From an uncultured virus (IMG/VR IMGVR_UViG_3300008266_000126) (Duplodnaviria > Heunggongvirae > Uroviricota > Caudoviricetes): a stretch of DNA of 64,000 nucleotides. The stretch lies in IMG/VR virus record IMGVR_UViG_3300008266_000126; one strand, written 5' to 3'. The position numbers and the translations under genes are program-made. The notes below the pieces were generated by a model. That model saw nothing but the letters and a program-made list of their open reading frames with translations, had not been told where the DNA came from and did not search any database. Positions 32,393 to 49,531 of the stretch are shown here, in pieces; position 1 is the stretch's first letter, and each line of letters opens with the position of its first letter.

Positions 32393-34416
32393 TGGCTAAA
32401 AAATCTAGGCAGTTTTCTACCAGTGATTTTACACCTGAACAGGTTGCTAGTAATCCAGCTTTGAAAAAAGCCTATGAAGAAGCATTAGCAGAAGAAACAA
32501 AATTAGCTGCAGAGAAGAAGGCAGCTGCTGCAGAAAAAAGAAAAGAACAAAAAGCTATCAGAGATGCAGAAAAACAAGCTGCAAAACAAACTCTAGATGA
32601 AGTAAAAGAAACTAAGAAAGCATCAACTGCATCTACTACTGCTGCTAGAGATAAGCAAAAGAGAGTAGAAAAGCAAAATCGATTAGAAAATGTTACTAGA
32701 AGACTCCCAGGTGCTGACCGTATAGAAGGTGTAGTATCAGGTACAGCTAGAAATATTGCACGCACTGTTACATCTAGTATAACTGGTAGTACAGGATTAA
32801 GAAACTTAGCACCAAGAGCAGTTGCAGCTAACACATTACAGGCTGCTGGTTTAGGAAGTCTTATTGCTTTGAGTCCTCTTTTTAGTGGTGGTAGAAGAGA
32901 TAGTAAACCAGATTCTCGACCACCTGTAGGTATAGATATTGCACCTCTTATTATCGGGTTTAAACTCTTAGAAGTAAAATTAGATAATATTAATAATAGT
33001 ATAGTTAATACAAATGAATATTTACAAGATCTAATTGCAGGTCAATCTCAAGCTGCAAGAGCAAGAATAGAAGAAGACAGAGAAAAGAGAGCACAAAGAG
33101 CACCGAGAGGAGAAGGTGTTACTGCTGTTCCTACTGCTGATGGTAAAGGTGGTATACTAAGTGCATTGAGCGGTCTTCTTCCTTCTATCGGTAGTTTGTT
33201 ACCAAATATTGGTTCAATTACTAAAGTATTTACACCTTTACTTACTGGTTTAAGTAATATTTTTAAAGGTCTATTAAGATTCTCTACTACTGTAGCACTA
33301 CCAATAGCTGCATTAGTTGCTATTTTTACATCACTAGAACAGAAAGACTGGTCAGAGATATTTGGTAATTTAAGCAAAGTATTTGATGATCTTTCTAAAG
33401 GTAAATTCTTAGATGCTTTTGTAAGATTAATAGGTACTATATCTGATACTTTAATCACTGGCGCTGGTAGACTAGTAGCTGATATTTTAGATTTTTTCGG
33501 TTTAGAAAGTGTAGCTAAATCTATAAATGATTTTTTAGATACTGTAGATATTGGTACCACTTATGTAAATGCTGTACAAGCTATAACTGATTATGTGGTA
33601 AATGCTTTTTATGCTGCAAAAGATACTGTAAGTGGATGGATTAATACTGCATTTGATGTTGGTCAAAAATTAATTGATTGGGCAGTTGGTTTAAAAGATA
33701 GTATTGTAAATAAATTTAGCAATGCTAAAGATGAGATTATAGCTTGGTGGGAAAGTTTCTCATTAAGTGCTCTACTAACTGAAAAATTTGAAGAGATAAA
33801 AAATAAAATAATTAATTTTGTAGGTCAAGACAATCTTCAAAAAGTATTTGATGTATTAGATTTCAATGTTGGTGGTTATATTTCTGAAAAGCTAGGTGAA
33901 GTGGTAGATAAAATTAAAAATATGTTTGCTGGTATTACAGATACTATAGGTAATTTCTTATATGAAAAAGGTAAGTTATTTGAAAAAATAGGGTTATCTA
34001 ATCCGTTCGAAGGATTTAAATCACAGGCAACTGCTGCCACTGCAGGTGCTACACCACAATCTAGTTTCTCTGCTATGGCTGCTGCTGGTCCTTCTGTACC
34101 CCTGACAGCTCAAACTTCATATAGAGAAGTACCTATTGATATGGGTGAAGGTGTTACTAGTACAACTACCGAAGCTATTACTACTTTTAAACCTACTGTG
34201 AATACTAAAAATCTTGCTATGGTAGCTCAATCTGGATTTGCTGCAATGGCGGCTGCTGGGCCACCTCAAGTAGTAGTATTACCTGGCTCAGGTACAATGA
34301 ATAGTTCAAGAGAACCTAGCACACCTCCTAGAATAAGTTCAGGGGCAGTATCGACCGCCCCTGCACCATCTCTTATGGATCAATCATTATATGGCTTTGG
34401 TGCTAACTATTATTAA
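32392..34416 (+). CDS. Probable tape measure / gp29-like hub protein
   Basis: Long, helical, Ala/Leu/Gly-rich with periodic W/F; follows gp26-gp51. Confidence 0.65.
   Translation: MAKKSRQFSTSDFTPEQVASNPALKKAYEEALAEETKLAAEKKAAAAEKRKEQKAIRDAEKQAAKQTLDEVKETKKASTASTTAARDKQKRVEKQNRLENVTRRLPGADRIEGVVSGTARNIARTVTSSITGSTGLRNLAPRAVAANTLQAAGLGSLIALSPLFSGGRRDSKPDSRPPVGIDIAPLIIGFKLLEVKLDNINNSIVNTNEYLQDLIAGQSQAARARIEEDREKRAQRAPRGEGVTAVPTADGKGGILSALSGLLPSIGSLLPNIGSITKVFTPLLTGLSNIFKGLLRFSTTVALPIAALVAIFTSLEQKDWSEIFGNLSKVFDDLSKGKFLDAFVRLIGTISDTLITGAGRLVADILDFFGLESVAKSINDFLDTVDIGTTYVNAVQAITDYVVNAFYAAKDTVSGWINTAFDVGQKLIDWAVGLKDSIVNKFSNAKDEIIAWWESFSLSALLTEKFEEIKNKIINFVGQDNLQKVFDVLDFNVGGYISEKLGEVVDKIKNMFAGITDTIGNFLYEKGKLFEKIGLSNPFEGFKSQATAATAGATPQSSFSAMAAAGPSVPLTAQTSYREVPIDMGEGVTSTTTEAITTFKPTVNTKNLAMVAQSGFAAMAAAGPPQVVVLPGSGTMNSSREPSTPPRISSGAVSTAPAPSLMDQSLYGFGANYY
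34340..34363 (-). terminator. Hairpin downstream of gp32, inside the end of the tape-measure gene
   Basis: CAGGGGCGGT-CGAT-ACTGCCCCTG pairs fully (one G-U) only on the - strand. Confidence 0.5.
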
Positions 34417-35330
34417 TCGTTAGCAAGCTTCTTAAAGAAACTCAAATCATCATCATCCTCATCCCAAGGTGCTGAAGACTCTTGCTTAGCTGCTGGAATT
34501 GCAGGTGCAGGAGCTGCACGTTGTGGTGTCGGGAATGCTTCATCTTCATCGATAGCAGGTGCCATGCGTTGAGCTGAGTCACCAGCAACACCGAGAGCTT
34601 TTTCCAAACGCATCTTAAGTTCTTCATATGACTTAAAGTGCTTAGGATCAAGAAGTTCTTGAAGTGAATGTTCTTTAGACCAGATAGCTTTGATCTGTTC
34701 ATCGTCACCAGCAATAGGTGCAGGTGATTCAAACTCTGACTTATCGTAGTTACGATAGCCTTCTACCTGACGAATCTTGAGCTTGAAGTTAGCACCATCC
34801 CAGAAGTCAAATGGGTTAATTGCCTTCTCATCAGCAAATTGTGGATGCATTGCTTCATTAAGCTTATCAAAGATCTTCTTACCATATTTGAACAAAAATA
34901 CCTTACCGTTGTTTTCAGGACGGGTAGGATCATTGACAACAAGGATATTAGAGAAGTAAGAGAGACGACGCTTCTGCTTACGAACGAGATCTTTGTTTGA
35001 CTCGATACCAGAGTTCCAGAGCTTTGTATTCATTTCTGAAACAGGATCTGGCTTATTGAAAGTAGTTAGACTCTTCTCGATATACCAACCACCAGGACCT
35101 TGGAACCCATGATCCCAAATGCGTACGAACGGCATGTCTTCACCAGCTGGGGCGGGAAGGAAACGAATGATCGCATAACCGTTTCCGGCTTTGTCAACGT
35201 CTGGCTTCCAGTAGCGGTCGTCGTTGGTATTGTCTTGGGGAACTGTAGAATTGAGCTTGTTGAGCTCGGATGTGAGTTTGTCAAAGTTAGACTTACGATT
35301 TTGTTTAAGTGCTTCGAAATTAATAGTCAT
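34413..35330 (-). CDS. gp32: Single-stranded DNA-binding protein gp32
   Basis: DDRYWKP..DKAGNGYAIIRFLPAP; YGKKIFDK; NYDKSEF; acidic tail DDDDLSFF. Confidence 0.98.
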   Translation of the reverse strand: MTINFEALKQNRKSNFDKLTSELNKLNSTVPQDNTNDDRYWKPDVDKAGNGYAIIRFLPAPAGEDMPFVRIWDHGFQGPGGWYIEKSLTTFNKPDPVSEMNTKLWNSGIESNKDLVRKQKRRLSYFSNILVVNDPTRPENNGKVFLFKYGKKIFDKLNEAMHPQFADEKAINPFDFWDGANFKLKIRQVEGYRNYDKSEFESPAPIAGDDEQIKAIWSKEHSLQELLDPKHFKSYEELKMRLEKALGVAGDSAQRMAPAIDEDEAFPTPQRAAPAPAIPAAKQESSAPWDEDDDDLSFFKKLAND

Positions 35331-35384: not shown

Positions 35385-35957
35385 TCAACTAAATTTATTG
35401 CGAAGTATTGCACAGTATTTATCTTTCTCGTAAGAAAGAAATGGATGTAGCTTTTTACAATTCAAAGCTATTTGTGGCCATAAGACAGGGTCTGTAATTT
35501 CTTTATTCCACTTACTAAAGAAACGAACACAGTCTTGTATGATAATGAAAGTCTCTTTTGAGATCTTTTTGCGTGTGAGTAGAGTGAGAAGGTAGGGATA
35601 GTCACCTGGTTTTACTTCAAAGTTAGCATCGAAGTTTTCAAGAAGATTGTCTATATCACCCTCAAACATATATGTAAGAGTTTGTTTACGTCTTAGAAAC
35701 TCATTATACTTCATCTGCTGATCTAAACCAAATAGATCACCTACCCATAGTTTCTGATTTTCTGAGAGATTAGCAACCAAGAATGTAAGAGGATCTTCAT
35801 GCTTAGATAGTTTATAAAACATATATTTGTCTTTACGAGTTTCAAATGTATGTTCAGATGCTCTCACCTTACCGTTGTATTTAAAGAAGTCATATGACTC
35901 TGTTGTAAAGTGATTCTTGATTGCCGTATAAAGCTTATATGCTTCAAAAGGACTCAT
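35385..35957 (-). CDS. gp59: Helicase loader gp59
   Basis: FEAYKLY.AIKNHFT...YDFFKYNGK...F..RKDKY.F.KL. Confidence 0.92.
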   Translation of the reverse strand: MSPFEAYKLYTAIKNHFTTESYDFFKYNGKVRASEHTFETRKDKYMFYKLSKHEDPLTFLVANLSENQKLWVGDLFGLDQQMKYNEFLRRKQTLTYMFEGDIDNLLENFDANFEVKPGDYPYLLTLLTRKKISKETFIIIQDCVRFFSKWNKEITDPVLWPQIALNCKKLHPFLSYEKDKYCAILRNKFS

Positions 35958-36187
35958 ATAGGAAGTCGACTCGTCTTTCTTACCATGTTAAGATTTTCTG
36001 CTTCTACTTGTATCCTAGCTTTTAATAGAGCACTTTGTTTAATAAGTGAAGCAGCTGTCTCTACCTCAACATTATTTGTTTCACAATAATACATTACAGC
36101 GTCAAAAAAAGTTAAATTTTTACTTAAAACTAATTTATCTATTTCTTTAACGAAGTCGGCAGAAGATTTAACGTTGGCTATTTTCAT
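35954..36187 (-). CDS. gp33: Late transcription coactivator gp33
   Basis: F..EI..LV....FDAV.YYCE.N..E.E.AA.LI...LKA.I..EA..LN...TSRLPI. Confidence 0.92.
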   Translation of the reverse strand: MKIANVKSSADFVKEIDKLVLSKNLTFFDAVMYYCETNNVEVETAASLIKQSALLKARIQVEAENLNMVRKTSRLPI

Positions 36188-36197
36188 ATTGTACCAT

Positions 36198-36971
36198 TCA
36201 CTGATTTACATTTATTATTTTATTATATTTTAAAAAAGAAATAAACGATCCTATAAGATCAAACTCTTTTTTATTAGTAGAGAAATAAGGGTTTCTAGGA
36301 TCACCATGATGATTATTATGCCATGCTTCTCCTAGAGAAACATAAGCAAGAAAAGGTAAGTTTACACTATTATCTTTTGTTTCGTAGTTTCTATAACCAA
36401 TATTTTTCATGTGTGAAAATATGTTTACCATACCAGTTACAAACCAGACATAAGCACCTGGTACTAAAAATCCTACTATTGGTCCCATAAACCCGAATAT
36501 TAAATATAAAATTACTATTAGAGAGATGTTAATTAACCAATGATATTTGTATAAGAATACTAGCTCTTTATGCTTTACGTAATCTTTAACAAATGCAACC
36601 TTTTGCTCATGCATAACAAATCCAAAATATGAATTTATAAATCCATGATGAGGACCGTGAGGATCTTTTTCTCTGTCTGTATATGCATGATGCTCTCTGT
36701 GAATAGCAACCCAAGAAAGAGATGGTCCTTGTAATGTAAAAACTGCAATAAAAAGAAAAATATTACGCACCCAATCACTATTAAACTTAAATGCTTTATG
36801 TGTTAAGTAGCGATGGTTGATCATACCTATTCCGATACCACCCATTATAACTGCTATACCATAAGCAATCAACCAATGATACCATGATGCATACATTATC
36901 ATAGGTATAAAGGAAAGATGAGCAATTAATTGAGTTATTAATACAATATAGGAATCTAAAGTATATTTCAT
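36198..36971 (-). CDS. Membrane-bound fatty acid desaturase (delta-9/OLE1-DesC type)
   Basis: Three His boxes HRYLTH, HREHH and HNNHH; DPHGP; GEAWHNNHH; hydrophobic segments. Confidence 0.93.
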   Translation of the reverse strand: MKYTLDSYIVLITQLIAHLSFIPMIMYASWYHWLIAYGIAVIMGGIGIGMINHRYLTHKAFKFNSDWVRNIFLFIAVFTLQGPSLSWVAIHREHHAYTDREKDPHGPHHGFINSYFGFVMHEQKVAFVKDYVKHKELVFLYKYHWLINISLIVILYLIFGFMGPIVGFLVPGAYVWFVTGMVNIFSHMKNIGYRNYETKDNSVNLPFLAYVSLGEAWHNNHHGDPRNPYFSTNKKEFDLIGSFISFLKYNKIINVNQ

Positions 36972-36979
36972 TAGTTTAT

Positions 36980-38137
36980 TTATAGACTTGAAAAAGCTAA
37001 TGTAATATTAGTACCACCAAAACCAAACGAGTTGTTTAAGGTTACTTTTTGTTTGCTATTGTAGATTTCCGTAGGCAGATTAATATCTTTTTTAGATATA
37101 GAATTATCTAATTCGTCTAAATTCCAATTAGGTATTACCACATCATGTTTTAATGCTAAAAGACATGCAAGTGTCTCTATTGCACCTGCTGCACCAAAAA
37201 GATGTCCATGTAAACTCTTTGTAGAACTGACTGGTATATATTTTGCTTTATCACCAAACAAACTAATTATACTCTGCAATTCAACTATATCACCTGTTGG
37301 TGTGCCTGTACCATGTGCGTTAATATAGGTAATATCGTCAAACAAAATATTTTTAGTTGCAATTTGCATTGCTTTTATTTGTCCTGGTGTGTTAGGTTTA
37401 GTAACGGATTCAGAACCATTAGTAGCACCATACCCTACTATTTCACCGTAAATATTAGCATTTCTTTTCAATGCGTGATCAAGCTCTTCTAATATAAAAA
37501 TTACTGAACCCTCAGACATAGTAATACCGTTTCTGTTTTTTGAGAACGGTTTGCAGTCATCACTTAATGCATTCATTGCTTTCCAGAATGCAAATTGTAA
37601 TTCATTAATACAAGCTTCCGCACCACCAGCTGCAAGACAATCATACTCCCCATATGCAATTTTTTTATATGCTTCACCGATTGCAGTTGATGCAGATGCA
37701 CATGCTGTAGAATATGTAAAAGCTGGACCTGTTATATTCTCTTTTAAAGCAATAAAGTTAGCACCCATATTAACCACTGAGCAAACTAATGCGGTAGGTT
37801 TTACTTTATTCTTAGCAAATAAACTTCTATAAGATTCTTCGTATGTTAATGCACCACCACCATAACCAACACCTAAAAATATACCTTCTGGTTGTACGGA
37901 GCTATCATTTTTTGCATCTAAGAAAGAAAGGTATGCCAGTCGTGTAAATCTATCAGTGACGTTTAAATCAAATCTATCAAAATGTGAATCTATATTATCT
38001 TTAACTATATAAGCAGCCGATCCAAATATATACTCTTTGGTACCCTGCTTACCAGTAAAGAGTGATTCTTTAATTTCTGATAAATTATTACCAATAGGTG
38101 TTCTACTACCTACACCCGTAACTACAACACGTCTCAT
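36980..38137 (-). CDS. fabF: 3-oxoacyl-ACP synthase II (FabF-type ketosynthase)
   Basis: MRRVVVTG.G; TACASAS (catalytic Cys); YINAHGTGT; KSLHGHLFGAAG; NSFGFGGTN. Confidence 0.95.
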   Translation of the reverse strand: MRRVVVTGVGSRTPIGNNLSEIKESLFTGKQGTKEYIFGSAAYIVKDNIDSHFDRFDLNVTDRFTRLAYLSFLDAKNDSSVQPEGIFLGVGYGGGALTYEESYRSLFAKNKVKPTALVCSVVNMGANFIALKENITGPAFTYSTACASASTAIGEAYKKIAYGEYDCLAAGGAEACINELQFAFWKAMNALSDDCKPFSKNRNGITMSEGSVIFILEELDHALKRNANIYGEIVGYGATNGSESVTKPNTPGQIKAMQIATKNILFDDITYINAHGTGTPTGDIVELQSIISLFGDKAKYIPVSSTKSLHGHLFGAAGAIETLACLLALKHDVVIPNWNLDELDNSISKKDINLPTEIYNSKQKVTLNNSFGFGGTNITLAFSSL

Positions 38138-38391
38138 TCTTTATCGATATTTTCGTAGAGGTAATCGATCAATTCTTCAATAGTTGTAGCACCACTTTCA
38201 ATAGTAATAGTATTAATTTTAAAGATATCTTCTAATTCAGACATAAAAGTTATTACTTCTAGTGAGTCTAGCTTTTCATTTAATTCTTTAAGACGGGATA
38301 ACGGATAGCTTCTATCAAATGTGCTAAGATCAATACCGTAACTTTTATTAAAGTGATCAAAAACTACTTTTGCGATCTCTTCTTTGGTCAT
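38134..38391 (-). CDS. acpP: Acyl carrier protein
   Basis: 85 aa, acidic, LDSLEVITFMSELEDIF (DSL Ppant site). GGAG RBS before ATG 38391. Confidence 0.8.
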   Translation of the reverse strand: MTKEEIAKVVFDHFNKSYGIDLSTFDRSYPLSRLKELNEKLDSLEVITFMSELEDIFKINTITIESGATTIEELIDYLYENIDKE

Positions 38392-38407
38392 TATAATCTC
38401 CATAATA

Positions 38408-38750
38408 TAGTGTGAGGTGTTTCTGTTTCCAAGCACACCTCACGAAGCTCATGTGACTCAGGCTGCTAGAGCGTAAGCACCATATGCATTGTTATCGTTT
38501 GCATTTACGAGTTTGCATCAGTCTCAGGTTAGCCTTTACTACACCTGTCGATCCTGTTTCGCCCCCATCAAAGATACACTGTGAGACACCGCTTTGCTCA
38601 GTGCGAACAGTTATATACTAGTCTCTTCCGCCTTACCCTCTTTATAATAGGAGGACTGTTGCACCCAACGACCAGTGTATCCGTGGTGGAGGCGGCGGGT
38701 ACTGCCCCCGCGTCCAGAATGTCTATTCTACTTCCGTCAACGACATCAGC
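38408..38750 (-). ncRNA. ssrA: Circularly permuted two-piece tmRNA, tag ANDNNAYGAYALAA
   Basis: The acceptor piece ...GACGCGGGGGCAGTACCCGCCGCCTCCACCA (ends 38684) lies upstream of the coding piece GGGGGCGAAACAGGATCGAC (starts 38566). G3-U pair in the acceptor stem. Tag ORF 38502-38458. Terminal hairpin GTGAGGTGT...ACACCTCAC. Outer ends approximate. Confidence 0.93.
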
Positions 38751-38754
38751 TCTT

Positions 38755-38785
38755 TATTTATAGTATAGTTAAAAATTAAAATCAA
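38755..38785 (-). promoter_or_regulatory. Composite tmRNA promoter: TTGATT-17 nt-TATAAA overlapping the late box TATAAATA
   Basis: Read directly upstream of the acceptor piece. Confidence 0.6.
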
Positions 38786-38788
38786 CTG

Positions 38789-38992
38789 TTAAATCTTACC
38801 CCAATCGATCTTATTCCATATTCTCTCATTAATAAAATAAGACAAAGTCCATAAACAGTTAATAATAATAGTAGGTATAATTGCATCAGCCATATTCTGA
38901 CCAGTAACAAGAAGCATGATATAAGTTGTCATAATTACAAACAACCTGTAAATTAACGACTTAACAATCGTTCTTTTAAGAGTAGCTTTCAT
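38789..38992 (-). CDS. DUF2061-like small membrane protein
   Basis: KRTIVKSLIYR...Y.INERIWNKIDWG. Confidence 0.75.
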   Translation of the reverse strand: MKATLKRTIVKSLIYRLFVIMTTYIMLLVTGQNMADAIIPTIIINCLWTLSYFINERIWNKIDWGKI

Positions 38993-39687
38993 ACGTTATA
39001 CTTCTCTTTATACTCTTGTCTTACTTGCATTAGTTTATTAACATATACATCTCTACGATCTTCAAATATCTGCGGCACTTCATTATCAACAGAAATTAAA
39101 ATAACTATTCTACTTACTGGTATATTATATCTCTCTTCAAACATAATAGCATATGCAGAGGCTTGACAAAAGTAATTAAGAATATAATCTCTGTTTTTAT
39201 GTTTACGAGCTGTCTTAAAATCAATAATAGAAAGTTTACCTTTCCATTCTGCAACACAGTCTACAGTACCTGCCATCTGAAGATGATCGGAATACATTCT
39301 TGTTTCTTGCAATCTTACATTATCAATATGATTATCTAAGAGAGGTTTTAACTCTTTAAAATTTAAAGAGTCGTTATAGTTATACTTAGAATAATCTATC
39401 TCATCATTGTTAATGTAATCTTCACATAATTGATGAATACGAGTACCTCTAGTAGCAGCTTGTGTGCTGATACGAGTAGCTTCTTCTTCACCTACTTTTC
39501 TTCTCCATTCCTGAATAGCTTTCTGATTCATAATACCTGTAACTGTAGTAACAGACGGATATAATAAACCTTCTGGCGTTTTATAATATCTACCAGAGTC
39601 TGTATTAACCTGTTCAAGTATATTATTTACTTCAGGAATCTCGATATGATTAAAAGTTTTTCTTTGTTTTAAAATATTTTCTAGCAT
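38989..39687 (-). CDS. PD-(D/E)XK exonuclease (phage Cas4-like/MGME1-like)
   Basis: YPSVTTV, RGT.IH, AGTVDC.AE..G.LSIIDFKT, Q..AYA. Confidence 0.9.
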   Translation of the reverse strand: MLENILKQRKTFNHIEIPEVNNILEQVNTDSGRYYKTPEGLLYPSVTTVTGIMNQKAIQEWRRKVGEEEATRISTQAATRGTRIHQLCEDYINNDEIDYSKYNYNDSLNFKELKPLLDNHIDNVRLQETRMYSDHLQMAGTVDCVAEWKGKLSIIDFKTARKHKNRDYILNYFCQASAYAIMFEERYNIPVSRIVILISVDNEVPQIFEDRRDVYVNKLMQVRQEYKEKYNV

Positions 39688-39688
39688 G

Positions 39689-40378
39689 TTACTTTATAAA
39701 ATGATAATCACCATCAGGTCCATTATCACTAAAAGCATTATCGTCAACTAAAATAAATCCCTTAGAACGTATATAATCAATAATAATATCTTTATGTGGT
39801 GCACCTTTGTTGTATTCTACTTTTTGTAATTCCATAATAAGATGTTTTGTATGCTGTAAACAGATATCAGCACCTTTAAGTACGTCTAGTTCTGCACCTT
39901 GTACATCTATCTTAATCAGATCTGGTAAAGGAAAGTTTTTATTTTTAACTACATTATCTAAAGTAGATGTAGTATATTCTTTAATATGAGATTCGTTAAA
40001 ATAATGTTCTGCACCAGAATTAAATTTAGGGTTTTCTCTGTAGTAAGAATTTCCACCAGGAAAAAAATTGTTCTGATAGAATTTAACTATATTACCAGTA
40101 GCGTCTGATAGTACACCGATGTTATAACCAGCAATATCAGAATCTTTAAAAATAAATTCTACTTCAGGCATTGCTTCAAAGCAGTAGAAGTTAGATGTAG
40201 GCCATATTTGTTTTGCTTCATTTGTCCAGTGAAGTACACAAGCACCTATATCGTAAACTACCTCAGGTACAAACTTATAGTAGTTTTTAATTCTACTAAG
40301 ATAGTTAGAATGCACCTGAGGTAGTAATTTTTTTTCGCTTAATTCTTTAAGATGTTTTTCAATTTCATTCATAATCAA
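39689..40378 (-). CDS. FkbM-family methyltransferase
   Basis: YDIGAC, FEA.P, TLD, DLIKIDVQGAEL.VLKG. Confidence 0.88.
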   Translation of the reverse strand: MIMNEIEKHLKELSEKKLLPQVHSNYLSRIKNYYKFVPEVVYDIGACVLHWTNEAKQIWPTSNFYCFEAMPEVEFIFKDSDIAGYNIGVLSDATGNIVKFYQNNFFPGGNSYYRENPKFNSGAEHYFNESHIKEYTTSTLDNVVKNKNFPLPDLIKIDVQGAELDVLKGADICLQHTKHLIMELQKVEYNKGAPHKDIIIDYIRSKGFILVDDNAFSDNGPDGDYHFIK

Positions 40379-41151
40379 TTTAAGTAAGTAGATACTGTAT
40401 CAGTCTCCTTATTAATATATCTTCTATTTTCCATAGCAGTCTTTTTAATAATAAAGTCTTTTACTAGTCCTGATCTTACAATATCCTCTTCTACAAATTC
40501 TACTGAACTAAAATATTTATTCATTCTCTCTAGTATTTTCATAAATTTAAGAATACCAGATCTTTCATCATCATATACTAGATCAGTTTGTCTATAATCT
40601 CCACAGAAAATTATTCTTGAATTTTTACCTACACGTGTTATAACAGTGCATAGTTCACTATAGGTCATATTTTGACATTCATCTACTATAATTATAGTAT
40701 TATCTAAAGTTGTTCCTCTTAGAAATGATGTTGTCTGGAAGTCTATTATACCTTTACCTTTAAGTATCTCATATGCATCACCTCTACCGTAAAGTTCTGA
40801 GCATATTGATTGATAAGGTAGTTCAAATATTTTTGATTTTTCTTTTATTGAACCGGGAAGAAATCCCATATCTCGGGAAGGCACCACTGATCGTATCAGT
40901 GTAATATTATTGTAGTCTTTATACTGTTCTATTTCTGAAAGAGCAAGGTAGAGTGAAATGAATGATTTGCCGGTACCAGGCAATCCATGTATTAAAATGT
41001 TTCTACCATTTGAAAAGTCTTTGAACACACACTCCTGATTTTTTGTTTTGGGGATAATCGATTTGAGTATTAGGTTATTTTTTACTTGTTTAGCCTCTTG
41101 ACGCTTTTGTTGTTTAATTAATCTCTTTTCAGCGCGTGTGAGTCTTTCCAT
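40375..41151 (-). CDS. phoH: PhoH-family ATPase
   Basis: GLPGTGKS; GFLPG; FLRG.T; VDECQN; GD..QTDL; DIVRSGLV. Confidence 0.95.
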   Translation of the reverse strand: MERLTRAEKRLIKQQKRQEAKQVKNNLILKSIIPKTKNQECVFKDFSNGRNILIHGLPGTGKSFISLYLALSEIEQYKDYNNITLIRSVVPSRDMGFLPGSIKEKSKIFELPYQSICSELYGRGDAYEILKGKGIIDFQTTSFLRGTTLDNTIIIVDECQNMTYSELCTVITRVGKNSRIIFCGDYRQTDLVYDDERSGILKFMKILERMNKYFSSVEFVEEDIVRSGLVKDFIIKKTAMENRRYINKETDTVSTYLN

Positions 41152-41166
41152 GTGGTACCTCTTTTT

Positions 41167-41400
41167 TTACCAGGTGTTGACGGTACTCCCTCTATGTGCT
41201 CTTTTCACTTTCTTTAAAACATCACGAAAACCTCCATCAGGTTTTCTCAAACCTAATCGAGTTGGATCTGCAATAGCAGGAGCCGATAATACTTGTTGAA
41301 GATGTGGGTTGTTTTCTACGTAGGCATCGTATTCAGAGATCGGCATGGATATGTCGAACTCTTTACCAGTTTTAGTATCATAAAACGTATAATTAGCCAT
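41167..41400 (-). CDS. FmdB-like small protein lacking the Cys ligands
   Basis: M..Y.F.D..TG.EF...M.ISE...Y...NP...KPD.GF.DVL pattern found next to phoH in T4-like phages. Confidence 0.6.
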   Translation of the reverse strand: MANYTFYDTKTGKEFDISMPISEYDAYVENNPHLQQVLSAPAIADPTRLGLRKPDGGFRDVLKKVKRAHRGSTVNTW

Positions 41401-41590
41401 TAACTAAAATGCCTTTCGACTTCCAATAATCCTGGATGTCTTTTTTATTTAGGGGATCTAACCCTTTAGAAAGCATTTCTTCTTCAACTAAATCTTGTAA
41501 ATATGCTTTTTCATTAAGATTTCTAGGATTATAATACTCATCTATCAACTTATCTACTGTTACTTTAGTACTGTTAAGAATCTGAGACAC
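41393..41590 (-). CDS. Hypothetical protein
   Basis: Overlapping-operon context. Confidence 0.6.
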   Translation of the reverse strand: MSQILNSTKVTVDKLIDEYYNPRNLNEKAYLQDLVEEEMLSKGLDPLNKKDIQDYWKSKGILVNG

Positions 41591-41759
41591 CTAACATCTC
41601 CCTAAGTTTGTGTTGAACTCTTTTAAGAGCAGCTGGTTCGTGTTCATTGAATACTATGAGGGTCTCTTGAACACCTTTTTTGCGACCCTCAAGCCAATAA
41701 TAGAATGCTACCACTGCAATAAGCAGAGTATATAAAACTGCGCTTGTTATATTATCCAT
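41574..41759 (-). CDS. Hypothetical membrane-anchored protein
   Basis: N-terminal hydrophobic helix. Confidence 0.6.
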   Translation of the reverse strand: MDNITSAVLYTLLIAVVAFYYWLEGRKKGVQETLIVFNEHEPAALKRVQHKLREMLGVSDS

Positions 41760-41912
41760 TAGTCGTCTTCGTATGATAAGAGTTTATCAAGATCTTTTGA
41801 GCGTAAAGACTTCTCTAAAACTGAGATTTTCTTCTTCTGTAATGTAACTGTTATTAAAAGTCTTTTTTTTATTTTTAAATTCTGTTTTATGGAATTTAGT
41901 AGAGTTGTTCAT
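41759..41912 (-). pseudogene. Small gene apparently broken by a frameshift
   Basis: The coupled ATG at 41912 stops at 41787. The +1 frame carries LEKSLRSKDLDKLLSYEDD* coupled (TAATG) to the next gene. Confidence 0.45.
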
Positions 41913-42337
41913 TCTGGAATAAGCCCTGGAAATGCTAGGTTAACTACTTCTTTTGTAATGCCCTTAAAAGGACATTTTTTATCTTTCATGCTTAAAAGAA
42001 GCTTAGCATCATCTGCACTTACATTTTCAAGCATCTGGATAAAAATCTGTTCTCGCCTCATCGGCTTAAGATTCGGATTTCCACCTTCTACTAACAAATA
42101 AAAGCGAGGCACTTCGTTAATAAATGCCTTAGGTTCATCAAATTTATTTGGAATATAAGGTGGTACACCTTCTGGTAAAAGAAATTTAACATTAGGATCG
42201 AACCAGCCTGCAAGCACAGTTCGCACTGCTAAATTATTATTAAGTTTAAGCGCTTGCACTCGTTCTTCTTTTTTCTTCAATTCATTAATTTTAGCAAATA
42301 ACTTTGCTACACCATCAATCTTATATTGAAATGACAT
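41909..42337 (-). CDS. Conserved T4-like hypothetical protein (rnh-adjacent)
   Basis: FDP..KF.LPEG.PPY; RREQIFIQMLE....DA.LL..MKDK. Confidence 0.8.
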   Translation of the reverse strand: MSFQYKIDGVAKLFAKINELKKKEERVQALKLNNNLAVRTVLAGWFDPNVKFLLPEGVPPYIPNKFDEPKAFINEVPRFYLLVEGGNPNLKPMRREQIFIQMLENVSADDAKLLLSMKDKKCPFKGITKEVVNLAFPGLIPE

Positions 42338-43197
42338 TAGAAATCACCTATATTTTCCATCATATTTTTAAGTTTATAATTAATAAAATAGTTAAACAGT
42401 TTACTCTTATCCTTACCTTGTTCGCTGAGATATTTATTAATAACTTCGGTTCGAATACTATCTGGTACCATTGATAGATCCACCATATGCTTATTACGCA
42501 TAAAGTTTCTATCTGTAGTACTATCTAAGAGCACTGCACCATCATTGTAGATCTTATTAATCTTTTTCTGAGTAAGAGGTTTCTGACGTTTATCAGCTAC
42601 AAAAGTATCATCATCAGATAATACATTTGGTATACCATCACCAACATCACCTTTAAGAATATGCTCTACAAGAAAGCGCTCTGGATTATCATGTGTAATC
42701 CATTTCTTTCTTACTGGGTCATATTGCTTAACGTTAGACTGTGTTTGTAATTGAACGAAGTCTTTATCACCAGAAAGGATAATAATCTTATGTACATCGT
42801 TAGTATGTTTGACTAGTGATGCAATAATATCATCAGCTTCAGCTGTATCGACCTGAATGACAGGATAGGGCAAATTATCTTTTATTTCTTGTTTAATTTT
42901 ATTAAAGATATCAAATATATTAGTCCAATTTAATTCAGACTCTTCACGATTCTTTTTACGGTTGGCTTTGTAGTAAGGGAAGATCTGCTTACGCCAATAG
43001 TTCTTATCATCACATGCTATAATCATCTCACCATATTCTTCACCAAACTTCTGTTTGTATGAACGAAGTGAGTTGATCACCATATGACGAAACAATCCTT
43101 CTTCGATAGGAATGTTCGTATGATTTCCAATCTGCATCATCAGATTAGATATCATGACTTGGTTAAAATCAACGATAATCATTTTAAATGTTTCCAC
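42337..43197 (-). CDS. rnh: T4-type RNase H (5'-3' exonuclease, FEN family)
   Basis: YWRK..FPYYK.NR; EADDIIA; LSGDKDFVQL; GD.GDGIPN. Confidence 0.95.
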   Translation of the reverse strand: METFKMIIVDFNQVMISNLMMQIGNHTNIPIEEGLFRHMVINSLRSYKQKFGEEYGEMIIACDDKNYWRKQIFPYYKANRKKNREESELNWTNIFDIFNKIKQEIKDNLPYPVIQVDTAEADDIIASLVKHTNDVHKIIILSGDKDFVQLQTQSNVKQYDPVRKKWITHDNPERFLVEHILKGDVGDGIPNVLSDDDTFVADKRQKPLTQKKINKIYNDGAVLLDSTTDRNFMRNKHMVDLSMVPDSIRTEVINKYLSEQGKDKSKLFNYFINYKLKNMMENIGDF

Positions 43198-43234
43198 ATA
43201 AATCTGTACTATAATATATTATATAGTTATTAAT

Positions 43235-43585
43235 TTATGTGTGCAAGTTATTTTCTTCAATTATTCTATCCAATTCTTTCTTAGCATCTGCTTCTAGTGT
43301 GATTGTAGCTTCTGCTAAGTCTTGAAACGAATGATTCAGATCTTTTGTTGTATAAACCATAGCACGGATTGCTTCTTCTAAGAAAACTACCGATTTTACT
43401 ACACTTTCATCTGGTTTAATTGTGAGACCATAAGATGTAAGTACTGCAAAGACTGCTTCGAAAGCATCTGCTGTTACTTCATCACAATATGTACGTCTCA
43501 CTTGTTCAACATGATCTATAGTCTGTTCAAGATTATTTGGAAAAGGACTGTTAGATTTTGTTGGAAATTGTATAATGTTGTCCAT
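43235..43585 (-). CDS. Hypothetical protein
   Basis: Likely start MDNIIQFP. Confidence 0.65.
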   Translation of the reverse strand: MDNIIQFPTKSNSPFPNNLEQTIDHVEQVRRTYCDEVTADAFEAVFAVLTSYGLTIKPDESVVKSVVFLEEAIRAMVYTTKDLNHSFQDLAEATITLEADAKKELDRIIEENNLHT

Positions 43586-43613
43586 ATTTCTGCCATATAG
43601 TATGGTGACATTA

Positions 43614-44012
43614 TTATTTATCATACTTTATAGCTTGTATGATTACTGCAGCTGCCACCGTTTTTTTATCTTTAGTAATAGAAGCAATAATAGATGGTCT
43701 ATAATTATTTGGTACTATAGCACTCAATCTATTTGATGCTCCACCAAAGAGTTTTATTTCGGGTGCACCTGATGTGTTATAAAACAAAACTATATCTTTA
43801 GGTCTTACGTTATTATCAAATCCAGTACCTAAAGCTTTTGCGCACGCTTCTTTAATTGCAAAACGTTTAGCATAATAAACAGCTTCGTTTGTATCTTCAG
43901 TAATTTCTTCTTGAGAAAAATTATTTTTGATAAATCTTTCTCTGATTGATCTCTTTAATATATCTTTAATTCTAGATACATTACAGAGATCAATTCCAAT
44001 TCCTATAATCAT
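43614..44012 (-). CDS. acpS: Holo-ACP synthase (4'-phosphopantetheinyl transferase)
   Basis: MIIGIGIDL...RI; YAKRFAIKEACAKALGTG; SGAP.I.L.GGA..RL. Confidence 0.93.
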   Translation of the reverse strand: MIIGIGIDLCNVSRIKDILKRSIRERFIKNNFSQEEITEDTNEAVYYAKRFAIKEACAKALGTGFDNNVRPKDIVLFYNTSGAPEIKLFGGASNRLSAIVPNNYRPSIIASITKDKKTVAAAVIIQAIKYDK

Positions 44013-45130
44013 TTAACTACTTTAAGTAGAATTACATTGTTGTTAATTCTATCTGAAAATGTGATAGGATCTGATGAGATATCATCCATAAGTTTACGAA
44101 GTACTATCTTACCTCCAGAAAGTACTTTCTTGATATACTCTTCTGGTTTACGACCGATACGTTTAGTTACGGAAGAATCGCTATCAAAGCCATCAATAGA
44201 AGTGCGCCGTACACTGAGACCAGCAGGCCCACGAGCCCTAAACACGCTAAGAGTTTTGTACTTAGTATTAAAGGTCCAAAGTTCTTGAGAGCCGATAACC
44301 GTTGCGGGGTCACACGATTGTAATTTATACTCATTGCTTTCTTTCTGATATTGGAAATGTTTCAAGAGTTTTTCTGTGGTAGGAGCTTTCTTCTTACGAG
44401 GAGCACGAGCTTTCTTTACATTACCTGCAAAGCGCTCGCAGTCCTCGATAAGCTTAGCGACATATGCTAACTTAGCTTTTAATTGAGGCTTCGTATAGTG
44501 AGTGTAGCCCTCATTGTCTTCGACAACAGCGTAAGCATACTCATCACGAAGAGGCCTATAAAATTCAGCAATTCTGTTCGCATGTTGAGCCGGTATCTCA
44601 TTTTTCTGTAACCACTCATAAATGTTGACCTGTTCACCTGAATCAAGAATAGCTTCTACATCACCAATAATATCTGAAACGCGTTCTTTGATACGTTCCT
44701 GAATAGACGGTTTAACTTTAAGTTCAGCAGGTTTTACTTCTACCTCCTCACCTATGTTAGTCATATTTCTAATATCATCTATAACACGTTTATATTCAAA
44801 GTCTTTAAGATGTGCTTTATTATTAGATGCAATACGGCACATCCATGCAGACGTCAAGGGTAAACGCTTCTCAGGTATACGATCAATAGCCTTAATCATA
44901 TCCTTATCAGTCTTAAAATATTCTTTGAGGTAAGCACGAGCTTCCTCATTCTCACACATAGTATTATACCATGTGAATGCTCGGATTAACTCAACGGTAC
45001 CTGGATTAATACCTACCTTAGGTTCATCACCAAGATACTTCCAGTTAACCAGATAGGTTTCTGACTTAGTAGTACGTTTAGTCTTTTTCGTTTTGACTTT
45101 AAGTAATGACTTAGCCATTGTACCTCTCAC
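44009..45130 (-). CDS. Conserved T4-like hypothetical protein
   Basis: PSIQERIKE; LQS.DP..VIG..ELW.FNTKYK.L; K..RKPEE. Confidence 0.75.
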   Translation of the reverse strand: MRGTMAKSLLKVKTKKTKRTTKSETYLVNWKYLGDEPKVGINPGTVELIRAFTWYNTMCENEEARAYLKEYFKTDKDMIKAIDRIPEKRLPLTSAWMCRIASNNKAHLKDFEYKRVIDDIRNMTNIGEEVEVKPAELKVKPSIQERIKERVSDIIGDVEAILDSGEQVNIYEWLQKNEIPAQHANRIAEFYRPLRDEYAYAVVEDNEGYTHYTKPQLKAKLAYVAKLIEDCERFAGNVKKARAPRKKKAPTTEKLLKHFQYQKESNEYKLQSCDPATVIGSQELWTFNTKYKTLSVFRARGPAGLSVRRTSIDGFDSDSSVTKRIGRKPEEYIKKVLSGGKIVLRKLMDDISSDPITFSDRINNNVILLKVVK

Positions 45131-49047: not shown

Positions 49048-49293
49048 TTATTTATTAATGCTAATAATTGAGTCAAATCTAAAAGAACGCCAACCTTCTT
49101 TATCTACATCCCATACTGAAATAATATTTTCATTTATTTTTTTATCACGATCTGTTTTCTTTTCATGAGGTTTAATAAATGCATCCATAAGCGTGCATTT
49201 CATATCACGCTCAGAACCATCAGTTTTTGTAAATTTAATATTTACAATACCTGAATGTAGCATATTCATAACGTTAGTTTTAGATAGCTCCAT
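49048..49293 (-). CDS. WYL_2/SH3-like (DUF2693) protein
   Basis: V...FTK.DGSER.M.CTL...VWDV.K.GWRSFR.D. Confidence 0.85.
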   Translation of the reverse strand: MELSKTNVMNMLHSGIVNIKFTKTDGSERDMKCTLMDAFIKPHEKKTDRDKKINENIISVWDVDKEGWRSFRFDSIISINK

Positions 49294-49531
49294 CACCGTA
49301 TCCACCGGCTGTCTCCTCAAGATATTCTTTCAATTCTTCATAACCACCAATACGTTTGCCATCAATTGTAATGATCGGTACCGTTCTCACTCCTGGAAAC
49401 ATTTCAGTTATTTCTGTGAGACCTACATCCTCACCTACTGAATAGTATTTGTAATTGATACCTTTACTGTTAAGTAATTCTTTAGCTTTCACACACCAAT
49501 TACAATTCTGTTTACCATATACCTCAATCAT
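49280..49531 (-). CDS. Glutaredoxin
   Basis: CNWC, RTVP.I.IDG..IGGY.EL. Confidence 0.93.
   Translation of the reverse strand: MIEVYGKQNCNWCVKAKELLNSKGINYKYYSVGEDVGLTEITEMFPGVRTVPIITIDGKRIGGYEELKEYLEETAGGYGDGAI

Follow-up and report, generated by a model that had tools for sequence, protein, structure and literature searches.

A candidate lipid module around a conserved acyl carrier protein–ketosynthase pair in an uncultured freshwater T4-like phage

The window, a stretch of 64,000 nucleotides from an uncultured virus (IMG/VR record IMGVR_UViG_3300008266_000126), encodes an acyl carrier protein (ACP), a FabF-like beta-ketoacyl-ACP synthase (KS), a membrane desaturase and an AcpS-type 4'-phosphopantetheinyl transferase, all four with intact motifs for catalysis. 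We see about an even chance that these genes provide a phage-owned lipid module, in which a private carrier and condensing enzyme, together with a separate desaturase, would shift the fatty-acid supply of the host. Judged by its sequences, the carrier–extender pair is an old, phage-specific unit. An initial annotation of the window had read the four genes as one acyl-chain module; the intact genes and the coupled pair speak for a real lipid module, but the four genes were not inherited together.

Four lipid genes in the window

The ACP, KS and desaturase genes form a head-to-tail trio on the minus strand (ORF list of the window). Its upstream boundary is an alpha-type two-piece (permuted) tmRNA gene (38411-38789, minus strand), and its downstream boundary is the gene of the late-transcription coactivator gp33 (35954-36187, minus strand; Pfam PF16805), followed by gp59 (35385-35957; PF08993/PF08994) and gp32 (34413-35330; PF08804). 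The tmRNA gene was recognized by Rfam (alpha_tmRNA RF01849, 121.4 bits against a cut-off of 50; RF04321, 106.3 bits), whereas ARAGORN, run on the window, found none; it lies 5' of the ACP gene in all five loci scanned (three relatives and two window-identical contigs). The AcpS gene lies 5.2 kb upstream of the trio, also on the minus strand, and overlaps its upstream neighbour by 4 nt and its downstream neighbour by 11 nt. ORFs, Pfam and Rfam thereby bear out what the initial annotation had described, namely the four genes with their motifs and strand, the order of the trio between the tmRNA and gp33-59-32, and an AcpS about 5 kb upstream that overlaps its neighbours.

The ACP (85 aa; 38134-38391, minus strand) starts with MTKEE and carries Ser43 in the motif KLDSL (D42-S43-L44); it resembles FAS ACPs in its acidic helix II and its pI of 4.4. 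On its own it reaches 17.7 bits with Pfam PP-binding, under the cut-off of 20.8, and a profile of 11 phage homologues aligns along its whole length with ACPs of known structure (2n50, E 2.9e-9). K40, D42, S43 and E54 are invariant. In an AlphaFold model (pLDDT 85.3) S43 begins a helix, and the 50 Foldseek matches listed for this model are all ACPs or carrier-protein domains (TM 0.60-0.78), every one with an E-value above 1e-3.

The KS (385 aa; 36980-38137, minus strand), whose start overlaps the ACP stop, matches PF00109 (124 bits) and PF02801 (106.9 bits). Its catalytic residues Cys146-His275-His312 align with the Cys and both His motifs of the solved FabF 1j3n (E 7.6e-70), and C146, H275, H312 and K307 are invariant across 19 relatives. 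The protein stays under the NCBIfam FabF cut-offs (fabF, 316 bits against the equivalog cut-off of 493.75; also 310 against 387). The third gene of the trio encodes a delta-9/SCD1-type membrane desaturase (257 aa; 36198-36971, minus strand; PF00487, 77.8 bits against a cut-off of 29.7) with three His boxes (HRYLTH at 53, HREHH at 91, HNNHH at 218) plus N183 and H187, and with hydrophobic stretches at 7-28, 32-52, 71-90 and 137-182. Across 26 relatives H53, H58, H91, H94, H95, H187, H218, H221 and H222 do not vary and N183 hardly varies; the SCD1 structure 4zyo is matched with an E-value of 1.8e-9. AcpS (132 aa; 43614-44012, minus strand) passes the cut-offs of PF01648 (43.8 bits against 25) and TIGR00516 (74.7 against 59.8), and its D8, E55 and K59 are invariant in four phage homologues.

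Gene packing and assembly

An ATGA overlap joins the ACP stop to the KS start, the KS and desaturase genes lie 8 nt apart, and 10 nt separate the desaturase gene from gp33. These junctions point to a single transcription unit of the trio with gp33-gp59; no minus-strand terminator-like site was found between ACP and gp33. The sole RNA-level matches, three short metatranscriptome contigs that all fall inside the KS gene, do not prove transcription.

The objection that the cassette might be a chimeric assembly fails. Contigs from three other studies, with 4-7 differences from the window, bridge the junctions: X9 (35665-38447) and X16 (35461-38555) each span gp59-gp33-desaturase-KS-ACP, and X11 does so in two pieces. 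Because of these bridging contigs and a G+C content of the module (30-34%) like that of its flanks, we do not regard it as a chimera. With phage core genes on both sides and the same gene order in IMG/VR contigs, the probability that the module is an artefact of host contamination or misassembly seems negligible. Eleven runs that carry no mark as a possible source, almost all with a freshwater or lake label, contain at least 93% of the sampled words of the stretch.

Conservation of the ACP–KS pair

A KS clade confined to phages occurs in 17 IMG/VR contigs at 44-100% identity. Among 82 KS-bearing locus rows, 19 (from these 17 contigs) score above 460 bits with the phage KS profile and the other 63 at most 291 bits. 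A phage-type ACP lies just 5' of the KS in 18 of the 19 high-scoring rows versus none of the 63 low-scoring ones; in the 19th (L030) the contig ends upstream of the KS, where the ACP would be. In a quick tree a branch with an SH-aLRT of 100 and a length of 1.26 sets the clade apart. The protein database has 34 KS clusters, with identities of 47-98% and lengths of 380-396 aa, the next proteins listed, outside the phage clade, reaching at most 43%; the best cellular KS locus has 40% identity among the matches listed in a pattern-limited genome search. Sequence conservation thus supports the ACP–KS pair as the conserved, translationally coupled core of the phage cassette.

The nearest cellular KS in the quick tree belong to dedicated ACP–KS pairs, which are nearer than the Bacillales-type FabF rows and adjoin LpxD or a serine-palmitoyltransferase-like enzyme. 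This position hints at a dedicated product of the phage KS rather than bulk fatty acid. The cellular pairs, in which a private ACP lies directly 5' of a FabF-like KS, are on the phage clade's side of the tree, and their KS also fall just under the FabF equivalog cut-off. They comprise LpxD-ACP-KS sets in Rhodobacterales (L189, L215), serine-palmitoyltransferase-like-ACP-KS sets in Nitrospirota (L185) and alpha/beta-hydrolase-ACP-KS sets in Methylophilaceae/Nitrosomonadales (L180, L195). They share 33-40% identity with the phage pair and have an acyltransferase that names the destination of the product, whereas the phages have none.

Origins of the desaturase and AcpS

A desaturase gene adjoins the pair in 12 of the 17 related contigs, so that the genes do co-occur in relatives; five contigs have no adjacent desaturase. 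In 10 of the 17, which are distant relatives, the desaturase gene is interposed between ACP and KS so that stop and start codons overlap, and L043 has three tandem desaturase-like genes and a PF10118 metal protein at the cassette. The window desaturase clusters with stand-alone viral desaturases, a family very common on its own (at least 620 stretches), whereas the interposed ones form another clade; of the 80 loci closest to the window desaturase, 77 have no KS and no ACP in the vicinity. Since it is not orthologous to the interposed desaturases, a desaturase was recruited to the ACP–KS locus twice, from two clades. Three large records scanned (G002, G003, G005) lack a desaturase altogether. 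The overlapping ACP-desaturase-KS genes of the distant relatives argue for a tighter coupling than that of a membrane-lipid desaturase.

AcpS is patchy, being found in four lineages only and missing in most relatives; it was not found in G002, G003, G006, G007, G009 and G010, all of which are incomplete records. It occupies the same p373|p129 slot in the relatives L004 and L017 and lies directly 5' of the ACP gene in L013. Among 13 viral loci with AcpS, 8 also encode a KS, ACP or desaturase no more than 8 kb away. The viral contigs L272 and L273, which have no KS, show a desaturase stop that overlaps the AcpS start; nearby are genes for ACPs, two further desaturases, PP-loop ATPases and radical SAM enzymes, as well as for an Asp/Arg hydroxylase and an FkbM methyltransferase. 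Such a combination of AcpS, ACPs and several desaturases keeps an ACP-tethered line of desaturation in play. The co-occurrence of all four genes, which the initial annotation had proposed to look for, holds for ACP, KS and desaturase in the 12 contigs but not for the patchy AcpS or the five contigs without an adjacent desaturase. As AcpS and desaturase are each missing from some relatives, neither gene would be obligatory.

Relation to known systems

The full set had initially been thought undescribed for a T4-like phage; however, the available text of Zaragoza-Solas et al (2020; PMC7029224) already gives fabF and a stearoyl-CoA (delta-9) desaturase, and its Table S5 acpP, as auxiliary genes of pelagimyophages, in a listing centred on freshwater "fonsimyophages" (PMP-D). 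The window shares with these phages the T4-like, SAR11/LD12 type, the freshwater habitat and the same three gene names. Likened by phage kind and gene names, it very probably belongs to the PMP-D group or a near relative; it has no match in GenBank phage records. The available text of PMC7029224 devotes one sentence and one table row to each gene, leaving aside gene order, phylogeny and the view of a unit, and lists no phosphopantetheinyl transferase. The gene list of fabF, delta-9 desaturase and ACP in freshwater pelagimyophages is therefore not new; AcpS, the conservation of the unit in a phage-only KS/ACP clade, its ACP-desaturase-KS form and the double recruitment from two desaturase origins are what our sequence comparisons appear to add.

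Roitman et al (PMC5776448) describe the viral desaturases of this class from cyanophages as delta-9 C16 lipid desaturases, and two cryopeg viruses carry them in five copies (PMC7300359). The window desaturase is likewise small, SCD1-like, phage-carried and of the three-His-box type, and multiple copies per phage are known, but it is packed in an operon with ACP and KS, as far as a comparison by description goes. In the available texts "acyl carrier" and "ACP" (PMC5776448) and "acyl carrier", "ketoacyl" and "fabF" (PMC7300359) have no occurrences. Also by description, predicted roseobacter prophages have fabG-acpP-fabF, with ACP and FabF as phage-associated lipid genes, but in host gene order, with fabG and, in the available text, without desaturase or AcpS (PMC8224337).

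Bacterial type II FAS shares with the phage genes the folds and motifs, an ACP directly 5' of the KS and a single-domain AcpS-type transferase, whereas the window KS is about 25 residues shorter than bacterial FabF (385 aa versus 408-413) and has no fabD, fabG or fabH alongside. JamB/polyyne-type systems, to our knowledge the only precedent for this desaturase superfamily on ACP-bound chains, resemble the phage sets by description in that a dedicated ACP gene stands beside one to three membrane desaturases; where they have an acyl-ACP ligase/FAAL, the phage sets have a KS, and the phage sets contain no thioesterase.

Proposed function and alternatives

We infer each biochemical step, the substrates used and what the phage would gain as follows. 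The phage AcpS would convert the phage ACP to its holo form, a task that would fall to host AcpS in relatives without one. The KS would load Cys146 with an acyl chain drawn from the host pool and condense it with malonyl-ACP, leaving the chain, longer by two carbons, as 3-oxoacyl on ACP. The malonyl group would come from host FabD; host FabG, FabZ and FabI would complete each cycle, and host acyltransferases would unload the product into membrane lipid. Since Pfam scans of the window showed no FabD, FabG, FabZ or FabI, the earlier suggestion that these are borrowed from the host is reasonable, but full cycles on the phage ACP are unsupported. The window desaturase would be a second, separately acquired lipid gene that most likely introduces a cis-delta-9 bond into C16/C18 membrane-lipid chains. 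Because it is of the acyl-lipid/acyl-CoA membrane class, its family does not imply a direct pipeline from ACP over KS to desaturase, and the self-activating route of carrier, elongation and desaturation first envisaged is weakened. Jointly, the genes may sustain the fatty-acid supply and shift it to longer or unsaturated chains in infection.

A thiotemplated line, in which the KS loads a host acyl chain onto the phage ACP and one or more desaturases act on the ACP-bound chain in the manner of JamB and the polyyne desaturase triad, is a possibility that we entertain tentatively; its output would be a special unsaturated product (signal, toxin, surface or virion modification) and not bulk membrane fatty acid. 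The desaturases overlapping ACP and KS in 10 of the 17 contigs and in tandem in L043, the recruitment, in the lineage of the window, of a second-clade desaturase to this locus, the desaturase–AcpS overlap beside ACPs and extra desaturases in L272 and L273, and the dedicated pairs as nearest cellular KS are consistent with such a line, and ACP-dependent membrane desaturases are known (available text of 10.1101/291195 and PMC9828172). However, Pfam scans of the window found no acyl-ACP ligase/FAAL or thioesterase, the clade of the window desaturase normally stands alone, and the His boxes are all of the plain delta-9 type.

That ACP–KS, desaturase and AcpS are independent cargo, gathered in the variable slots tmRNA|gp33 and p373|p129, appears unlikely. 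The gaps in the distribution of desaturase and AcpS and the abundance of stand-alone viral desaturases would suit it, as would an FkbM methyltransferase found in the window type alone and a DUF2061 gene found in the window type and L017 alone among the relatives compared; Melnitz, too, has a tmRNA gene directly upstream of gp33 (available text of PMC9004378). Yet within the phage clade ACP and KS were never found separated, desaturases from two clades arrived at this single locus, and AcpS abuts ACP in L013 and desaturases in L272 and L273, with lipid genes near most viral AcpS loci. A role of the phage ACP and KS as decoys, which would sequester host FAS partners and so halt host lipid synthesis, is very improbable. 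The many partners of ACP in general and the strong divergence of the phage pair from its cellular counterparts would suit such a role, but a decoy would have no use for a dedicated AcpS, and the invariance of Cys-His-His, Lys307 and the carrier Ser across the clade's range of identity fits selection for activity.

Layout of the acyl-chain genes

The window covers part of the genome of a T4-like phage. Baseplate, tail and tail-fibre genes occupy 1-34 kb of the window, and after them come gp32, gp59, gp33, RNase H, PhoH, a class II ribonucleotide reductase and a primase (Pfam). Its gp32 is 52.8-54.5% identical to gp32 of Sinorhizobium phage phiN3, Pelagibacter phage HTVC008M and cyanomyophages. 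All genes of the proposed acyl-chain module were called on the minus strand. In transcription order, p373 (44009-45130, -) comes first, and AcpS, the phosphopantetheinyl transferase gene (43614-44012, -), lies between p373 and p129. From AcpS to the tmRNA gene follow p129, RNase H, DUF6433, three small ORFs, PhoH, an FkbM methyltransferase, a PD-(D/E)XK nuclease and DUF2061, all on the minus strand. The tmRNA gene (38411-38789, -), of the alpha-type two-piece kind, was found by Rfam (121.4 bits), missed by ARAGORN and present at the same position in all five loci scanned. Directly after it come the acyl carrier protein (ACP; 38134-38391, -), the FabF-like ketosynthase (KS; 36980-38137, -), whose start overlaps the ACP stop (ATGA), and the desaturase (36198-36971, -), separated by 8 nt from KS and by 10 nt from gp33; gp33, gp59 and gp32 then follow in that order (-). 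The initial annotation had placed a contiguous, co-oriented trio between the tmRNA gene and gp33-59-32, with a phosphopantetheinyl transferase upstream on the same strand, and this layout holds. Promoter-like sites are not above chance (52 versus 50.2 expected).

The genes between PhoH and the tmRNA gene include the FkbM methyltransferase (39689-40378, -) and the DUF2061 membrane protein (38789-38992, -). Among the compared loci (L numbers, mostly IMG/VR viral contigs), FkbM is restricted to the window type and DUF2061 to the window type and L017.

Presence of the trio in other samples

The trio is not an artefact. Its G+C content (30-34%) is the same as that of its flanks, and single contigs from three further studies bridge gp59 to ACP with 4-7 differences, both of which speak against a chimeric assembly, one of the outcomes that, according to the initial annotation, would refute its reading. 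Of the words sampled from the trio (2.2 kb), 93-100% were present in 19 DNA runs, eight of which are possible sources of the window DNA. These 19 runs and one RNA run represent 13 studies, with labels that are nearly all freshwater or lake. One contig of metagenome run X9 joins 35839 to 38416 and thereby skips 2576 nt; it was set aside as unreliable because its shorter side comprises only 24 letters. The metatranscriptome run X20 contained 15% of the sampled words, and three RNA contigs (151-187 nt, 0-2 differences) map to 37383-37867, inside KS. DNA carry-over is possible and these contigs show no strand, so they do not count as evidence of KS expression.

Assignment of the four proteins

KS contains both ketoacyl-synthase domains (Pfam; PF00109, 124 bits; PF02801, 106.9 bits), and its best solved relatives are FabF enzymes (1j3n, E 7.6e-70). 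C146, H275 and H312 align to the Cys/His motifs of 1j3n and are invariant in 19 relatives, so that the intact Cys-His-His triad described initially is borne out; with both domains and this triad, KS groups with the KAS I/II enzymes. It scores below the cut-offs of the FabF equivalog TIGR03150 (NCBIfam; 316.2 versus 493.75 bits) and the subfamily model PRK07314 (310.3 versus 387), as does the KS of the related viral contig L014 (287.8 and 279.3). At 385 aa, the phage protein is shorter than FabF (408-413 aa).

Taken alone, ACP stays below the cut-offs of Pfam (PF00550, 17.7 versus 20.8 bits) and NCBIfam (23.3 versus 66); orthologues from L010 (21.8), L014 (26.4) and L019 (24.3) exceed the Pfam cut-off. 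A profile of the 11-member ACP family matches PDB ACPs end to end (E 2.9e-9), and D42-S43-L44, the DSL serine motif already noticed, is invariant or conserved. The AlphaFold model (pLDDT 85.3) predicts a small helical bundle in which helix 43-56 begins with S43, the carrier serine of the D-S-L motif thus opening helix II, and the Foldseek matches listed for this model are all ACP or carrier domains (TM 0.60-0.78). Because of the family profile, the predicted position of S43 and the Foldseek matches, we take this protein to be an ACP.

The desaturase exceeds its Pfam cut-off (PF00487, 77.8 versus 29.7 bits) and, as noted in the initial annotation, has three His boxes; they are HX4H at 53 and HX2HH at 91 and 218. 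H187 is invariant and N183 nearly invariant among its relatives; going by SCD1 structures, we take the three boxes together with H187/N183 to be the metal-binding residues. Pfam score, His boxes and the additional Asn/His assign it to the delta-9/SCD1/DesA class. SCD1 is its best solved relative, and it has four or so hydrophobic stretches. The protein is much shorter than DesA-family proteins and does not reach the DesA equivalog cut-off (83.4 versus 400 bits, in an alignment to positions 1-239 of the 385-position profile).

AcpS passes both PF01648 (43.8 versus 25 bits) and TIGR00516 (74.7 versus 59.8) as a single domain of the AcpS-type length of ~120-130 aa. Its D8, E55 and K59, presumably the catalytic residues, are the conserved Asp, Glu and Lys of this type and are invariant among the phage homologues.

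Conservation of the ACP-KS pair

Among the 120 matches listed from a KS protein search (8000 candidates scored), 34 clusters of 380-396 aa share 47-98% identity with KS; the next matches are at most 43% identical, and the named ones are bacterial FabF or "synthase family" proteins. An IMG/VR scan with the KS alignment confirmed 161 loci, of which the best 80 were taken and, with three further loci, scored as 82 rows with the phage KS, ACP and desaturase profiles. With the KS profile, 19 of the 82 rows (17 contigs) score above 460 bits and the other 63 at most 291. Phage-type ACP lies just upstream of KS in 18 of the 19 high-scoring rows, the exception (L030) being a contig that begins inside the desaturase, and neither phage-type ACP nor desaturase occurs in any of the 63 low-scoring rows. 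The 17 contigs represent about ten lineages: two have the same sequence as the window, one sequence type is shared by L014, L015, L016 and L021, and a second one by L030 and L043. An ACP-profile scan of viral contigs, limited to a single search pattern, yielded eight loci, all previously found and each beside KS.

In a quick maximum-likelihood tree of 58 KS, the 20 phage-clade rows form one side of a branch of length 1.26 (SH-aLRT 100), so that trees against cellular copies, one of the checks proposed initially, set the phage KS apart. No cellular KS above 40% identity was among the matches listed from a pattern-limited scan covering one genome per prokaryote species, and the phage KS and ACP lineages were met only in viral or unassigned metagenome sequence. 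By sequence comparison, the conserved core is the ACP-KS pair.

Against GenBank phages, a collection from which close records of the window phage may be missing, blastn of the trio gave no match and tblastn of KS 28 records, all at most 42.3% identical. Most of these records are fragments without annotation that were deposited as phages of Listeria, Enterococcus, Staphylococcus, Acinetobacter and E. coli, and their matching sequences look like host FabF/FabB.

Recruitment of the desaturase

A desaturase adjoins ACP-KS in 12 of the 17 contigs. The window type has the order ACP-KS-desaturase. An in-cassette desaturase, encoded between ACP and KS in an array where stops overlap starts, is found in L013, L014 (and its three copies), L018, L019, L020 and L043/L030, and ACP directly precedes it in the first five of these. 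L043 encodes ACP, three tandem desaturase-like genes, KS and a PF10118 protein. ACP-KS is followed directly by gp33, with no desaturase in between, in L004, L005, L006 and L017, and likewise in L010 after a 71-aa ORF. PF00487 was not found in the records of L005, L006 and L017 (118, 76 and 110 kb; 69, 47 and 68% complete).

The window desaturase is 24-29% identical to the in-cassette copies and about 40% to others. Its family is very common in viral contigs, where at least 620 of 634 matched stretches were confirmed as members. Among the 80 loci listed as closest to the window desaturase, KS and ACP lie within 5 kb only in the two window-identical ones; 77 are without KS and ACP, and the remaining one shows a weakly KS-like ORF. 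A quick tree built from 96 rows unites seven of the eight in-cassette copies (SH-aLRT 99), the eighth forming a long branch elsewhere, and places the window desaturase with two 78-82% identical relatives in a different clade (99), beside stand-alone copies. These two desaturases and two KS of 72-73% identity probably belong to the same contigs (longest 2649 and 2623 nt for both). In a second tree of 38 rows, from which the two long L043 copies and the majority of stand-alone rows had been omitted, the AU test rejects a single clade for the two desaturase groups (lnL difference 34.6, p 0.012), the grouping tested having been named after the 96-row tree had been seen. As judged from these trees, a desaturase appears to have been recruited to the ACP-KS locus twice. 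Given the KS tree, the simplest history would be an ancestral ACP-desaturase-KS cassette, loss of the in-cassette desaturase in the window/L005 group and gain of a new one downstream of KS in the window line.

The sole desaturase match among GenBank phages is Pelagibacter phage Mosig (27.7%). This gene (L087, 5923-6573) is the only desaturase-domain gene of Mosig and lies in a large modification cluster beside tail-fibre genes, unrelated to the trio, together with hydroxylases, an aminotransferase, MoaA-like radical SAM enzymes, a nitroreductase, a methylase and an acetyltransferase. The 286-kb viral record that holds L014 (G006) contains four separate PF00487 genes, one in the ACP-desaturase-KS cassette and three elsewhere.

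Distribution of AcpS

Homologues of AcpS occupy the same slot between p373 and p129 in L004 (37.5% identity) and L017 (45.9 bits), and in L013 a weak homologue (21.8 bits) immediately precedes ACP. None was found in this slot or in the whole, incomplete records of L005 and L006, nor in the likewise incomplete records of L014, L019, L020 and L043. A four-member AcpS alignment retrieved 13 loci from viral contigs, three of them ACP-KS phages. In L272 and L273 a desaturase stop overlaps the AcpS start, in L270 a desaturase lies 4 kb from AcpS, and five short contigs carry AcpS partnerless within their span. Matches in GenBank phages (six) are all host-like fragments. AcpS is therefore patchy among the relatives, yet tied to acyl-chain chemistry.

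The clusters of L273 (3251-11554) and L272 (3567-9845) comprise two ACPs, up to three desaturases, AcpS, PP-loop ATPases, radical SAM enzymes and an Asp/Arg hydroxylase, with no KS; that of L273 also includes an FkbM methyltransferase. L271 (1692-8057) and L274 (8007-12884), the last two of the 13 AcpS loci, come from a different phage type with a D5-like primase and an SNF2 helicase, and combine AcpS with a very diverged 369-aa KS.

The initial annotation had regarded carrier, ketosynthase, desaturase and AcpS as one module. Its observation is confirmed and its interpretation partly supported: the proposed check for co-occurrence in phage databases bears out a recurrent ACP-KS pair with an adjoining desaturase in most contigs, whereas the twofold recruitment of the desaturase and the patchiness of AcpS argue against a fixed set of four.

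Cellular relatives

An ORF matching the phage ACP profile is present in 65 of the 80 best cellular KS loci. In six annotated cellular loci, ACP lies directly upstream of KS and the pair is outside the fabD-fabG-acpP-fabF cluster; an alpha/beta hydrolase accompanies ACP-KS in Methylophilaceae and Nitrosomonadales. Rhodobacterales have LpxD-ACP-KS (L189, 2587-5212; L215, 2558-5212) with a bona fide LpxD (270.6 versus 242.5), and Nitrospirota have serine-palmitoyltransferase-like-ACP-KS (L185, 2458-5233; 555 versus 640). These two units are dedicated pairs outside the housekeeping fab cluster. In the quick, unrooted KS tree the phage clade joins 11 rows of the dedicated-pair kind (91), within a 43-row group (100) that is without the seven Bacillales-type FabF rows. 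This position hints, without proving it, that the phage pair may descend from a dedicated ACP-KS pair.

Possible functions

Acting alone, the ACP-KS pair would condense an acyl chain with malonyl-ACP to a 3-oxoacyl chain on ACP. Malonyl loading and the three reductive steps would fall to host enzymes, since Pfam scans found none of the enzymes for these steps in the window. In our preferred reading, to which we give about even odds, this private carrier and elongation pair feeds host lipid synthesis and the separately acquired delta-9 desaturase acts on membrane lipid. Action on membrane lipid has been shown for cyanophage vFADs (viral fatty-acid desaturases; PMC5776448).

The main alternative, that the desaturases work on an ACP-bound chain and a dedicated product is made, is, in our view, less likely. 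JamB and the polyyne desaturase triad desaturate ACP-bound chains (10.1101/291195, PMC9828172), and in the JamABC and polyyne systems a dedicated ACP is encoded beside the desaturase(s), as in the phage sets, although KS intervenes in the window. The in-cassette arrangement, the tandem desaturases, the AcpS-desaturase-ACP clusters and the dedicated ACP-KS pairs of cells all point in this direction. However, JamABC and polyyne clusters include an acyl-ACP ligase or fatty acyl-AMP ligase and a thioesterase, and the phage sets are without both: no AMP-binding or thioesterase family was found among the 64 window ORFs or the 119 ORFs of relatives scanned. The window's own desaturase, moreover, is akin to stand-alone copies. 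Complex predictions for a cassette-type desaturase and its ACP, made without controls, scored 0.02 and 0.15 versus a mark of 0.32 and count neither way. Extended to a joint scheme, which we consider unlikely, aquatic phages would own a ligase-free thiotemplated line: KS would extend host chains by two carbons onto the private ACP, AcpS would keep ACP holo, and desaturases of ~250 aa, singly or as tandem sets of two to three, would act on the ACP-bound chain during infection to give a dedicated unsaturated, polyunsaturated or acetylenic product, the window line having swapped its in-cassette desaturase for one of the stand-alone clade.

Relation to published phages

Two of the trio genes, fabF and a stearoyl-CoA desaturase, have been named as unique genes of freshwater pelagimyophages, and acpP is listed for pelagi- and cyanomyophages (PMC7029224); a phosphopantetheinyl transferase is not listed in the accessible part of that paper. 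The initial impression that the full set had not been described for a T4-like phage thus holds for AcpS but not for the other three genes. From the gene list, the freshwater labels and the similarity of gp32 to that of HTVC008M (52.8%), we infer that the window is kin to the PMP-D "fonsimyophages", the freshwater group of the same study. In Melnitz the tmRNA gene lies directly upstream of gp33, and alpha two-piece tmRNAs are reported for this phage and pelagimyophages (PMC9004378); the terms acyl, fatty acid and desaturase are absent from the accessible part of that report. Five desaturase copies are described in each of two viruses (PMC7300359). For a full set in phages, our literature search yielded only fabG-acpP-fabF in predicted roseobacter prophages (PMC8224337), and searches by title or abstract found no phage-encoded phosphopantetheinyl transferase. 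The gene list is therefore known; what is new, as variation on it, is its reading as a module, AcpS and the twofold recruitment of desaturases.

Phage lipid genes have so far been read singly, as genes that help to adjust membrane fluidity. In the T4-like phages compared here, which are aquatic and deeply diverged, a packed unit recurs that comprises a carrier, the enzyme activating it, a condensing enzyme and at least one desaturase. Abundant phages of fresh and marine waters would accordingly go beyond small changes to host fatty acids and supply both components that determine the chain made and the carrier on which it is made. Should the phage ACP be the carrier on which the desaturases work, the unit would add to the few cases of ACP-dependent membrane desaturation, with KS replacing the ligase of known systems, and engineering could draw on it for very small desaturases and orthogonal ACP/AcpS/KS sets. 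Otherwise it would still be a well-documented auxiliary pathway of several genes, carried by phages whose hosts are among the most abundant freshwater bacteria.

Other genes of the window phage

A class-3 lipase (55917-56678, -; PF01764, 77 bits, without NCBIfam match) is a fifth lipid-related gene of the window phage. A ferritin-like protein (59669-60106, -), a 2OG-Fe(II) oxygenase (53547-54131, -) and a glutaredoxin (49280-49531, -) are also encoded; that iron or redox supply from these genes could matter to a di-iron desaturase is speculation. In the tail region, a tail-fibre-like protein of 1376 aa (1805-5935, -) combines 11 collagen triple-helix repeat stretches (302 bits) with a T7 tail-fibre N-terminal domain, and a protein with a TnsA-like endonuclease domain (29735-30178, +; 82 bits) is encoded amid the baseplate and tail genes.
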